A stretch of 64,000 bases of DNA from Escherichia coli (GTDB taxonomy: Bacteria; Pseudomonadota; Gammaproteobacteria; Enterobacterales; Enterobacteriaceae), in assembly GCF_003018255.1 (NCBI RefSeq), contig NZ_CP027440.1. One strand, given 5' to 3'. The notes beneath the pieces are model-generated. The model was not told where the DNA came from. It searched no databases and saw nothing but the letters and a program-made list of their open reading frames with translations. Shown here piece by piece: positions 33,662 through 39,370 of the stretch. The first letter of the stretch is position 1; every line of letters starts with the position of its first letter. Made by a program: the position numbers and the translations under genes.

Positions 33662-33786
33662 GGAGTTGTCGGTTCGTTTTGACGGTTGGTGATATCACTA
33701 TAGATATTGATCATTAAGTTGATTAGACCCAAAATCATGATTAGACCTATCATTTAAATGATTAATAGATTGTATGGAGATACTGA

Positions 33787-34967: not shown

Positions 34968-35022
34968 TTAAGGCGAAACAAATAATTACGCATCAATTTT
35001 AATGTCGGTTAGAGGGAAACTT

Positions 35023-36636
35023 ATGAAGCACTCTGTTTCAGTCACGTGTTGTGCGCTGTTGGTCAGCAGCATTTCTCTTTCGTATGCTGCTGAAGTTCCG
35101 AGCGGCACAGTACTGGCAGAGAAGCAGGAGCTGGTGCGCCACATTAAAGATGAGCCTGCGTCGCTGGATCCCGCTAAAGCCGTGGGCCTGCCAGAGATTC
35201 AGGTCATTCGCGATCTGTTTGAAGGACTGGTGAATCAGAACGAGAAAGGGGAGATTGTCCCCGGCGTTGCGACTCAGTGGAAAAGTAATGACAACCGTAT
35301 CTGGACTTTTACCCTGCGCGATAACGCAAAATGGGCGGATGGCACACCGGTAACGGCGCAAGATTTTGTCTACAGCTGGCAACGTCTGGTGGACCCAAAA
35401 ACATTGTCGCCATTTGCATGGTTTGCCGCGCTGGCGGGAATCAACAACGCACAGGCGATTATTGATGGTAAAGCCGCGCCTGACCAGCTTGGCGTCACCG
35501 CAGTTGATGCCCAAACTTTGAAAATCCAGCTTGATAAACCGTTGCCGTGGTTTGTGAATTTAACCGCTAACTTTGCCTTCTTCCCGGTGCAAAAAGCCAA
35601 CGTAGAAAGCAGTAAAGAGTGGACGAAACCCGGAAATCTGATCGGTAATGGCGCTTATGTTCTTAAAGAGCGCGTAGTCAATGAAAAACTGGTCGTGGTA
35701 CCGAATACCCATTATTGGGATAACGCCAAAACGGTGCTGCAAAAAGTGACCTTCCTGCCAATTAATCAGGAATCCGCAGCCACTAAGCGTTATCTCGCGG
35801 GGGATATTGATATCACCGAATCCTTCCCGAAAAATATGTATCAGAAGCTGTTGAAGGATATTCCGGGGCAGGTTTATACGCCGCCACAGCTCGGGACCTA
35901 TTATTATGCGTTTAACACGCAAAAAGGGCCGACGGCCGATCAGCGTGTTCGCCTGGCATTAAGTATGACGATAGATCGCCGCCTGATGACCGAAAAAGTG
36001 TTGGGAACGGGCGAAAAGCCAGCGTGGCATTTTACACCAGATGTTACTGCAGGATTTACGCCGGAACCTTCGCCGTTTGAACAAATGAGTCAGGAAGAAC
36101 TGAATGCGCAGGCAAAAACTTTGTTGAGCGCAGCTGGTTATGGTCCGCAAAAACCGCTGAAGCTGACGCTTTTGTATAACACTTCAGAAAACCATCAAAA
36201 AATTGCGATTGCTGTAGCATCAATGTGGAAAAAGAACCTTGGCGTAGATGTTAAATTGCAAAATCAGGAATGGAAAACCTATATCGATAGCCGTAACACC
36301 GGCAATTTTGATGTTATCCGAGCCTCGTGGGTAGGGGATTATAATGAACCCTCCACTTTCCTGACATTATTAACGTCAACGCATTCAGGAAATATTTCAC
36401 GCTTTAACAATCCGGTATACGACAAAGTACTGGCCCAGGCATCAACGGAAAATACCGTTAAAGCGCGTAATGCCGATTACAATACGGCAGAAAAAATCCT
36501 CATGGAGCAAGCACCGATTGCACCAATTTATCAATATACCAATGGACGATTAATCAAGCCGTGGCTGAAAGGTTATCCCATTAATAACCCGGAAGATGTG
36601 GCGTACAGTCGGACTATGTATATTGTGAAGCATTGA
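35023..36636 (+). CDS. mppA: Murein tripeptide periplasmic binding protein MppA (OppA-like, cluster C SBP)
   Basis: ORF 35002..36636; ATG 35023 with RBS gagggaaa; MKHSVSVTCCALLVSSISLSYAAEV signal peptide; 537 aa. Confidence 0.9.
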   Translation: MKHSVSVTCCALLVSSISLSYAAEVPSGTVLAEKQELVRHIKDEPASLDPAKAVGLPEIQVIRDLFEGLVNQNEKGEIVPGVATQWKSNDNRIWTFTLRDNAKWADGTPVTAQDFVYSWQRLVDPKTLSPFAWFAALAGINNAQAIIDGKAAPDQLGVTAVDAQTLKIQLDKPLPWFVNLTANFAFFPVQKANVESSKEWTKPGNLIGNGAYVLKERVVNEKLVVVPNTHYWDNAKTVLQKVTFLPINQESAATKRYLAGDIDITESFPKNMYQKLLKDIPGQVYTPPQLGTYYYAFNTQKGPTADQRVRLALSMTIDRRLMTEKVLGTGEKPAWHFTPDVTAGFTPEPSPFEQMSQEELNAQAKTLLSAAGYGPQKPLKLTLLYNTSENHQKIAIAVASMWKKNLGVDVKLQNQEWKTYIDSRNTGNFDVIRASWVGDYNEPSTFLTLLTSTHSGNISRFNNPVYDKVLAQASTENTVKARNADYNTAEKILMEQAPIAPIYQYTNGRLIKPWLKGYPINNPEDVAYSRTMYIVKH

Positions 36637-36686: not shown

Positions 36687-37718
36687 TTAGCGACCCTGGT
36701 CCGGCGGTGTAATGTTATCCATATACAGCGTCTGGCTGGGGAAGGCAAAGTCCGCGCCGTGTGACTGTACAATATCGATAATCTTCAAATAAACGTCTTG
36801 CTGTGCAGCAAGCCATTCAGCCCATACCGTGGTTTTGGTAAAGCAATAAACCATAATATTCAATGAAGAGTCAGCAAACTGGTTGAAATAAACCAGTAAG
36901 GTTTGTCGCTGGTCGATGGCCGGGTGATTTTTCAGCATCTCACGTACGGCTTCGACAATAACGCCCACTTTTGCCGCATCCTCATAACGTAAACCAATGG
37001 TCGTGGTAATGCGCCGGTTGGTCATTCGTCCTGGGTTTTCTACGCTGATCGACGAAAACAGCGAGTTCGGTACGTACAACGGACGATTATCAAAAGTCGT
37101 AATTTTGGTAATTCGCCAGCCAATTTCCGCTACTGTACCTTCGATATTTCTGTCCGGTGAACGGATCCAGTCGCCAATACTAAAAGGACGGTCGAAATAG
37201 AGCATAATCCCGGAAAAGAAGTTACTCAAAATATCTTTACCGGCCATACCGACAGCCAGACCACCAATACCACCAAAGGTCAACAAGCCAGAAAGGCTCA
37301 TACCGAAATGTTCACCATAAAGCAGAACAAGCACCACAATAATGGTGATTTTGATGATACGCGACATAATCCGCGCACTGGTGATATCGCGACCTTTTTT
37401 AATCTGCTGTTTTTCAAACTGATTTATCAGCAGAAATAGCTTAATCGTCAGAATAACCGCAATCAGGGACGTACAGATAAAATCGATAACGCCTGGGGTG
37501 ATAAATTTGAGTTTATAGTTTTCTATAACATAATTAATGATGCTACCAACAGCACTGATAATTATGGTGTAGATTAAAAATTGCACCGCATGGAATAAAA
37601 ATCCTTTTCTTTTACGATTTCCGCGGCGAAACCAAAAGCTCATCAGAATCAATGCTGCGCAGCTACCGAAAATAATGACCAGATTAAGCGCATTATTTGT
37701 AAACAGTTCAGCGATCAT
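36687..37718 (-). CDS. ynaI: MscS-family mechanosensitive channel YnaI
   Basis: 343-aa ORF with N-terminal TM helices and MscS-like core. Confidence 0.88.
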
Positions 37719-37961
37719 TGTTTTATCAGGCTCCTCCAGATAATTGTCGTCATGCCGGAAACCCCTGGCGGGGCTATTTTACCGCGACAATTCATTCAGA
37801 TCATCAATAGTCAGGGAAGGAAGTAGCAACATTAGCTAACTAATCAATGCGTTGATTGTAAATCCAGCTAAGAGGTGAGGTTTTCAGAGCAGACAACGGT
37901 GAAATGTCATGGTATTGTTACGTTTAGGTAACAAGAAATTTGTCTGCACAAGGATTACATC

Positions 37962-38219
37962 ATGATTATGGCGAAACTGAAGTCAGCGAAAGGGAAGAAA
38001 TTTCTCTTTGGTTTGTTGGCGGTTTTCATTATTGCGGCGTCGGTTGTGACTCGCGCGACCATCGGCGGCGTGATAGAACAGTACAATATTCCGCTGTCTG
38101 AGTGGACGACATCAATGTATGTGATTCAGTCATCGATGATTTTTGTTTATAGCCTGGTCTTTACTGTGTTGCTGGCAATCCCGTTGGGAATTTATTTCCT
38201 TGGCGGCGAAGAGCAGTAA
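37962..38219 (+). CDS. ynaJ: Small inner membrane protein YnaJ (DUF2534)
   Basis: 85-aa ORF MIMAKLKSAKGKKFLFGLLAVFIIAASVV with two TM helices. Confidence 0.85.
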   Translation: MIMAKLKSAKGKKFLFGLLAVFIIAASVVTRATIGGVIEQYNIPLSEWTTSMYVIQSSMIFVYSLVFTVLLAIPLGIYFLGGEEQ

Positions 38220-38228
38220 GTAAAAAAT

Positions 38229-38250
38229 AGGCCCGATAACTCGGGCCTTG
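38229..38250. terminator. Bidirectional terminator between convergent ynaJ and uspE
   Basis: Hairpin aggcccga-taac-tcgggcct. Confidence 0.6.
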
Positions 38251-38268: not shown

Positions 38269-39219
38269 TTAATCGTCTTCTTCGTCATCCAGTTCAACGG
38301 GTGTCTGATACTGGTCAGGTTTAATGACCAGCAGGTCGCAGCGAAGATGATCAATCACCTGTTCCGCCGTGTTACCAAGGAATGCTGCTGAAATACCGGT
38401 GCGTCCGACCGTGCCCAGAACCACAATCCCCGCCTGTAAGTGCTCCGCCAAATCAGGAATCACCTCTTCTGGCAGACCTTTTTCTACGTGCGTCATGTTT
38501 TCATTAATGCCGAATTTCTGCCGCAGGGCTTTCATTGCCAGCAAATGTTGCCCACGAATGGCATCGTTATAAACGCTCGGATCAAATTCCGGCAGTTCAA
38601 TCGCGATATTAATTGGCGTTACCGGATAAGCGCCAACCAGATGAACTTCGGTATGGTTGACTTGTTCCGCCAGTTCGATCGTCTCTTTGACCAGTTTTTC
38701 ATTGAGCGCATTATGATACGGCTCTTCACTGGCGAGATTCACCGCCACCAGCGCCTTACCCCCTTCCGGCCACGGCTGGTCTTTCACCATCCACACGGGG
38801 CTTGGGCATTTGCGTAACAGATGCCAGTCCGTTGGCGTAAAAATCACCGCTTCCAGACGGTCATGTTGGTGCGCCATTTTTAGCACCAAATCGTGCCCGC
38901 CGCTGATCACTTCCTGAATGATGGCTTCGAAAGGACGGTTATGCCAGACCACTTTAATTTCAATGGGAACGCCAGCATTGAGATAATATTTTGCCTGCTC
39001 GTGGATCCAGGCTGTACGCTGGCTGATGACGCCCTGACGCATAGCGGTACGTTCGTCCGGGGAGAGCAGGGTGGTCATTTCGTATGAGAAGTCATAGATC
39101 GGCAAAAAGGCTTTAATTTTGCCACCAATCCGTTGATGTAAATAAACAGCTCGCCGCAATGCTGGTTGGTCGTCCTGGTTAGGATCGATAACAACGAGCA
39201 TGTTCTGATACATAGCCAT
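38269..39219 (-). CDS. uspE: Universal stress protein E (tandem Usp domains)
   Basis: ORF 38269..39246(-); start at [17 protein letters not shown] (ATG rc 39217-39219), 316 aa. Confidence 0.9.
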
Positions 39220-39370
39220 ACAGGGTCTCCTTACAACAACTGTCAACGCAGTTTGTAATTAAAAGATTAACCCATATCTGGTGAATGAAACAGTGATGAA
39301 CCTTCTGCCAGATCAATAAATCAGAAAAATTTAATGATATGACAGAAGGATAGTGAGTTATGCGGAAAAA

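Follow-up and report, generated by a model that had tools for sequence, protein, structure and literature searches.

The locus between the divergently transcribed genes ynaI and ynaJ of Escherichia coli contains a short perfect palindrome, and the question that it raises is which protein, if any, recognizes it. The palindrome was examined in a window of 64,000 nucleotides from a non-K-12 strain of E. coli. It reads AATCAA-TGCG-TTGATT (AATCAATGCGTTGATT) and occupies positions 37842-37857, and both the coordinates and the symmetry given in a first-pass annotation of this DNA were borne out. TGCG separates the two arms, AATCAA and TTGATT, each the exact reverse complement of the other, and symmetry holds for 7 of 8 pairs when the count is made from the centre, G37849|C37850. 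The genes run in the order mppA (35002-36636, plus strand), ynaI (36687-37718, minus), ynaJ (37962-38219, plus), uspE (38269-39246, minus) and fnr, the last 1.5 kb from the palindrome, which sits in the 243-bp spacer (37719-37961) separating ynaI, the gene of an MscS-type mechanosensitive channel, from ynaJ, which encodes a small membrane protein (DUF2534). The distance to ynaJ, annotated as about 110 bp, was a fair estimate, with the end of the palindrome 105 bp and its centre 112.5 bp before the ynaJ ATG (37962). The reading developed below, held with a confidence falling just short of probable, is that the palindrome is a candidate IHF bending site between the ynaI and ynaJ promoters, present in two overlapping opposite orientations.

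Promoters of the divergent spacer and the IS5 insertion of K-12

The ynaJ loci of other species (47 retrieved) were aligned to the spacer, and the divergent ynaI/ynaJ layout was found to be kept in Escherichia, Citrobacter and Salmonella. The blocks invariant in the alignment were, on the ynaJ side, GCAGACA (37889-95, −35-like), TGTCATGGTATTGTT (37904-18), which contains the extended −10 TGgTATTGT, GTAAC (37927-31) and the Shine-Dalgarno sequence, and, on the ynaI side, TATTTTA (37776-81, TAAAAT on the minus strand) and GATCAT. The ynaJ core promoter (37890-37918, plus strand) is composed of CAGACA (37890-95), a 17-bp spacer and TGgTATTGT (37910-18), invariant in the three genera, and was missed by a simple promoter scan because only 8 of its 12 hexamer positions match. 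Sigma-70 ChIP-seq peaks were reported for ynaJ at U00096.2 1395358 (window 37931), with occupancies of 1130 aerobically and 120 anaerobically, and for ynaI/insH-4 at 1393982 (window 37754) (Myers et al. 2013, PMC3688515). The predicted ynaI −10 hexamer, TAAAAT (37776-37781, minus strand), is conserved across genera and has the latter sigma-70 peak nearby; the ynaI start would lie near 37769, with the palindrome centre near −80 from it.

The documented regulator of ynaJ is ArcA, by which the gene is directly bound and repressed. An ArcA box, TTGTTACCTAAACGTAACAAT, was located at 1395341-61, spanning −12 to +9 of ynaJ, together with an ArcA ChIP peak at the gene and a 3.4-fold derepression in an arcA mutant (Park et al. 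2013, PMC3798270). In the window, the box (37914-37934, minus strand) is a 7-6-7 inverted repeat, TTGTTAC-N6-GTAACAA, conserved in Escherichia, Citrobacter and Salmonella. Its position gives the conversion window = U00096.2 − 1357427 and places the start of ynaJ transcription at 37926, from which the centre of the palindrome is at −76.5. The palindrome is between both promoters and inside neither, and ArcA acts at its box and not at the palindrome. The ynaJ regulatory core, with ArcA over the extended −10 promoter, is already published and is outside the palindrome coordinates; judged from the alignment, the whole cross-genus conserved part of the ynaJ promoter (−35-like element, extended −10 and ArcA box) is downstream of the palindrome. 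The ArcA box, for ynaJ the sole regulator site with experimental support, resembles the palindrome in its inverted-repeat look and in sharing the same spacer, but it lies 57 bp to the right and has 11-bp-spaced direct repeats and cross-genus conservation, neither of which the palindrome has. As an ArcA element the palindrome was rejected, its inverted arms being without TGTTA-like direct repeats at that spacing and the published box being elsewhere.

Three minor features accompany the promoters. A further 11-bp direct repeat lies over the extended −10 on the plus strand (TGTCA at 37905-09 and TGTTA at 37916-20). AAGTAGC and ATTAGC/ATCAGC blocks (37830-37835 and 37820-37829) are kept across genera; relative to the predicted ynaI start they lie at about −52 to −67, and they may belong to the upstream part of the ynaI promoter. 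The segment TTAGCTAACTAA (37832-43) agrees at 10 of 12 positions with the SlyA consensus.

In K-12-type strains, a 4-bp target, CTAA (37836-37839, 2 bp to the left of the palindrome), is duplicated by IS5 (IS5F/insH4; PMC11677980). The element occupies NC_000913.3 1396044-1397238 (1306-2500 of the retrieved K-12-type locus, L001), and the window strain has no IS5 at CTAA. In K-12, ynaI is cut off by IS5 from the palindrome, which is still attached to ynaJ; the IS5 end abuts the palindrome, does not include it and lies 6 bp from the IHF core. Among 5,422 E. coli genomes, 367 gave no uninterrupted match to the spacer, and in two of these the presence of IS5 was confirmed. Reg-Seq in K-12, in which IS5 stands between ynaI and the palindrome, detected no transcription-factor sites for ynaI (PMC7567609). 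The DNA beside the palindrome differs between laboratory K-12 and most natural E. coli, and caution is needed in carrying inferences on ynaI and ynaJ from Reg-Seq or ChIP to other strains.

The IHF core match and IHF occupancy in K-12

The match to a regulator matrix that the first-pass annotation had named as a check was obtained, and it was exact, to the IHF core consensus WATCAANNNNTTR (PMC8942017, PMC10380432). The core is present without mismatch on both strands, as AATCAATGCGTTG on the plus strand (AATCAA-TGCG-TTG, 37842-37854) and as AATCAACGCATTG on the minus strand (AATCAA-CGCA-TTG, 37845-37857), the two being offset by 3 bp; the double match arises because the element is palindromic. 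If occupied, one IhfA/IhfB heterodimer would engage a 13-bp core through the minor groove and bend the DNA by about 160 degrees. Placed some 76 bp before the ynaJ start and some 80 bp before the predicted start of ynaI, such a bend could shape the architecture of the divergent pair, by folding upstream DNA back onto RNA polymerase, by coupling or insulating the promoters, or by modulating H-NS coverage; a site of this kind would be no on/off operator. Both occupancy of the palindrome by IHF and an effect of it on expression are inferred. The earlier proposal of an operator for another dimeric regulator would then hold in part, IHF being a heterodimer, but it would fail in that IHF is an architectural bender with an asymmetric site and not a classical operator-binding repressor or activator.

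In common with known IHF sites such as lambda attP H' (TATCAATTTGTTG) and those located upstream of E. coli promoters, the palindrome has an exact 13-bp core, is intergenic and lies tens of base pairs upstream of promoters, and its conservation keeps WATCAA and TTR while leaving N4 free. It differs from them in its two mutually exclusive orientations, in a G+C-rich core spacer (TGCG/CGCA) and in lacking a 5' A/T-tract, no A-tract being found 5' of either core; A/T-rich DNA at that side, often an A-tract, increases the affinity of IHF. The A+T content of the 47-bp context is 0.62-0.66, with a mean of 0.62 for bound sites, and that of the 22-bp 5' flanks is 0.64 (plus) and 0.55 (minus), compared with local means of 0.59 for bound and 0.50 for unbound sites.

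Occupancy was assessed from published data on K-12. In the IHF ChIP-chip data for MG1655 grown anaerobically on glucose, no peak was found at the palindrome (U00096.2 1395269-84, equivalent to NC_000913.3 1397245-1397260), the nearest peaks being at 1392853-1393174 and 1402582-1402777, and H-NS ChIP-chip covers the palindrome aerobically (1394844-1396955) (PMC3688515, Table S4 for IHF). The 140 kb of MG1655 around the locus was scanned for IHF cores and the matches were set against these IHF peaks. Exact WATCAR-N4-TTR matches were in or within 150 bp of a peak in 10 of 31 cases, and the other strict WATCAA-N4-TTR matches were in or near one in 6 of 9, with 20% expected for both; from the latter proportion, occupancy can be predicted fairly well from a strict core match. 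The three other strict matches in this 140 kb that were unbound likewise have G+C-rich spacers. The consensus matches in the pspF-pspA spacer (AATCAGATCTTTA, beside a sigma-54 promoter) and in the paaZ-paaA spacer are established IHF sites. Neither has a peak in Table S4, and the negative result at the palindrome is a weak one because these two are also unlisted and because IS5 lies so close to the core in K-12; it lowers the IHF reading and does not remove it. Of 55 known IHF targets, 51 were recovered in another ChIP-chip study (PMC1636352). The supplements of two other IHF studies contained no mention of the ynaI/ynaJ locus, and no IHF-dependent expression of ynaI or ynaJ was found in the literature.

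Should IHF bind, the site would add DNA architecture to the control of two membrane genes about which little is understood and would explain why only these 10 bases have survived in a fast-evolving part of the spacer. The palindrome is at most an unannotated member of a very common site class, and its importance beyond local annotation is little.

Two observations were made on IHF consensus sequences elsewhere. Each K-12 IS5 copy (ends at U00096.2 1394086 and 1426800) carries an exact IHF core (TATCAGGGACTTG / TATCAGGAACTTG) just inside its terminal inverted repeat, and neither core coincides with an IHF ChIP-chip peak in the Myers data (PMC3688515). In Table 2 of PMC6907758, WATCAANNNNTTR is placed under H-NS and TCGATAAATT under IHF, and these motif rows appear swapped when set against all the other sources consulted.

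Conservation, chance and a neutral origin

The bare palindrome is not beyond chance expectation. The window contains 27 perfect 6-4-6 inverted repeats, and the probability of at least one in the shuffled 243-bp spacer was 0.06, rising to 0.42 for 6-bp arms with any spacer length of 0-10. An exact IHF core is likewise not rare, with 11 exact matches to WATCARNNNNTTR in the window and 5.4 ± 2.1 in shuffles, or about 5 per 64 kb by chance. What goes beyond chance is the pattern of conservation within Escherichia together with the exact match on both strands to a known consensus.

Within E. coli, nine haplotypes were compared (the window and eight others across the identity range), and the arms were identical in 9/9. 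The most divergent of them, that of E. coli E400634 (L053), has 12 differences in 281 bp, one of which, G37851A in the 4-bp spacer, makes a perfect 16-bp palindrome, AATCAATGCATTGATT. Across the genus, seven haplotypes (the window, L053, the cryptic lineages L002-L005 and E. albertii, L006) were aligned without gaps over 243 bp. The zone at 37836-37888 (53 bp) is hypervariable, with 19 of its 53 columns invariant; within it, 8 of 10 arm positions are invariant (ATCAA 5/5, TTGAT 3/5), as are 0 of 4 spacer positions and 11 of the 43 positions in the rest of the zone. The difference between arms and remainder (Fisher p = 0.0023) is significant only against this local zone and not against the whole spacer, in which 64% of columns are invariant, and the haplotypes are not independent. 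The Escherichia consensus is ATCAAY-NN-RTTGAT. The IHF core is kept at the same position in 7/7 haplotypes and is perfect in at least one orientation in 6/7; apart from the window, the plus-strand match is perfect in L003, L004, L005 and L053, and the minus-strand match in L002 (AATCAGCAGATTG) and L053, with TATCAACGAGTTG and TATCAATGGGTTG as further examples of perfect cores. E. albertii has one core mismatch in each orientation.

The observation withstands the refuting condition set in the first-pass annotation, since the arms are kept across Escherichia species and the sequence matches a known matrix, that of IHF. The conservation of the arms stops at the genus boundary. All 17 Citrobacter loci lack the palindrome, and a relic with 1 mismatch is left in Salmonella diarizonae. 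The upstream DNA of Enterobacter, Lelliottia and others shows no relationship, although TGTTA repeats persist near the start.

These data also bear on a neutral explanation, which we regard as a serious if somewhat doubtful possibility. According to it, the palindrome is a quasi-palindrome without a dedicated function, a chance inverted repeat in an A+T-rich spacer that happens to match the IHF core, and its persistence in Escherichia reflects short divergence times, perhaps with hairpin-templated correction, and not selection. The frequencies of such repeats and of exact cores given above agree with this, as do the absence of both IHF and FNR ChIP peaks in K-12 and the lack of conservation outside the genus, unlike the core promoter and the ArcA box. 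Invariance at 8/10 arm positions is unremarkable against the whole spacer, and the Reg-Seq result for ynaI in K-12 points the same way, though IS5 intervenes there. Template-switch correction at quasi-palindromes yields perfect palindromes, and the G37851A change of L053 is of the kind that it would give. The neutral explanation is countered by the arms being the sole conserved island in a 53-bp zone with two unalignable haplotype families, while the 4-bp spacer between them varies freely, and by the retention of a perfect 13-bp consensus in 6/7 haplotypes.

Immediately to the right of the palindrome, at 37857-37885, the two haplotype families are represented by TGTAAATCCAGCTAAGAGGTGAGGT and GATATGTTACGCGACAATCTATTGC, which are mutually unalignable and lie between conserved flanks, a pattern suggestive of replacement of the segment or of very rapid change at this spot. 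In the Citrobacter freundii complex, a different and much stronger inverted repeat, (A)TCAGCGCTATT-N6-8-AATAACGCTGA(T), with arms of 10-12 bp, is present at the homologous spot (L014 at about 2371-2400, L016/L017 and L024; about −135 to −100 from the ynaJ ATG), its centre falling within about 2 bp of that of the E. coli palindrome when the two are aligned. In Citrobacter, a Zn-ADH gene, and not mppA, adjoins ynaI (short contigs).

Symmetric regulators and other candidates

A further feature counts against the IHF reading: both arms are kept beyond the needs of a single orientation, a pattern that would fit a symmetric dimer as well. On this the operator reading of the first-pass annotation can be restated as a candidate site for an Escherichia-specific symmetric dimeric regulator with the half-site RTTGAT in a 6-2-6 arrangement (ATCAAY-NN-RTTGAT), acting on ynaJ from about −76, on ynaI from about −80, or on both, which we consider unlikely. 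Both arms are retained, down to the final two bases on the right, which one IHF orientation does not require; position 6 is always Y and position 9 always R, and greater symmetry than in the window is seen in the haplotypes L003/L005 (ATCAAC-GA-GTTGAT) and L053. From centre to centre the half-sites are 9 bp apart, as in FNR sites, and the negative IHF ChIP result would be explained naturally. To our knowledge, no E. coli regulator has a motif that fits the palindrome. With a symmetric regulator, the coincidence of its half-site with the IHF consensus would be accidental, near-matches elsewhere in the window are mostly within genes, and no genomic-SELEX or ChIP report naming the spacer was found, except for that on ArcA at the promoter core and a CRP SELEX listing in which ynaJ appears without a location. 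If true, such a regulator would co-ordinate ynaI with ynaJ, and the resemblance to an IHF site would be coincidental or would mean competition with IHF.

A specific dimeric candidate is PgrR (YcjZ), a LysR-type repressor encoded 3.2 kb to the left, whose operator the palindrome is very improbably. In the window the outline ATCA-N6-TGAT is present 6 times (1.5 expected), and 0/100 shuffles reached 6; of the six, 3 are intergenic, all within 4.2 kb (33710, 33749 and the palindrome); the first two, ATCATTAAGTTGAT and ATCATTTAAATGAT, lie in the ycjY<>pgrR spacer of PgrR itself. For PgrR, 11 genomic-SELEX peaks have been reported. These dyads share with the palindrome their outline and proximity to pgrR, but only 8 bases are common, and the palindrome gives T-N10-A in place of the LysR-type T-N11-A. 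In addition, E. albertii and two cryptic lineages are without the ycjY-pgrR block and have no PgrR homologue within 20 kb, yet the dyad ATCAA...TTGAT is kept; PgrR therefore does not explain the conservation, and a PgrR operator was rejected as the main reading. Within the ycjY<>pgrR spacer, the dyads at 33710 and 33749 belong to a cluster at 33700-33770 that also holds AATCATGATT and two copies of the direct repeat TGATTAGACC, and these dyads are probably PgrR operators. The missing block, ycjY-ymjD-ymjC-pgrR, is absent from between mpaA and mppA in E. albertii (L063/L064, 6153-8677) and in the two cryptic lineages (L065/L066, 2947-8668), so that mpaA abuts mppA; the latter two have two glycoside-hydrolase-25 genes between mppA and ynaI.

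The exclusion of FNR in the first-pass annotation has stood up. The palindrome and an FNR site are alike in having both pentamers, a 4-bp spacer and the 9-bp distance, but the half-sites are swapped, ATCAA-N4-TTGAT where TTGAT-N4-ATCAA is needed, so both recognition helices would be turned the wrong way round. The table of FNR peaks and that of predicted sites (PMC3688515 S5/S6) contain nothing at 1393-1396 kb, and the FNR-dependent change in ynaJ expression was without an associated FNR peak.

The remaining candidates were dismissed. LacI/GalR-family operators are palindromes with a conserved central CG step; the palindrome is centred on G|C, and its four central bases vary in Escherichia (TGCG, TGCA, TCTG, CGAG, TGGG, TATA). 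By-eye comparison with the motifs of LacI-type, LysR T-N11-A, CRP, Fis, NsrR, CytR and SlyA sites gave none that fitted. An intrinsic terminator or an RNA or DNA hairpin was rejected for its 6-bp A+T-rich stem, its lack of a T-run and the weak DNA fold of the 51-nt region (−5 kcal/mol, z = −1.4); no terminator was called at the palindrome, and no Rfam match was found in its region at E ≤ 1. A repeat family or mobile-element end does not agree with a median of 1 place per genome among the 5,422 E. coli genomes. A role as a promoter −35 was rejected because no acceptable −10 follows TTGATT at 16-18 bp on either strand, and the real ynaJ promoter is 40 bp downstream. The palindrome is in a non-transcribed spacer and has no competing assignment to a promoter hexamer pair, an Rfam RNA or a repeat family.

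Beyond ynaJ, a G+C-rich hairpin, AGGCCCGAGTTATCGGGCCT, with T-runs was observed at 38229-38248, between the convergent genes ynaJ and uspE; this hairpin is reported to be a bidirectional terminator that serves as a model in RNA-polymerase collision studies.
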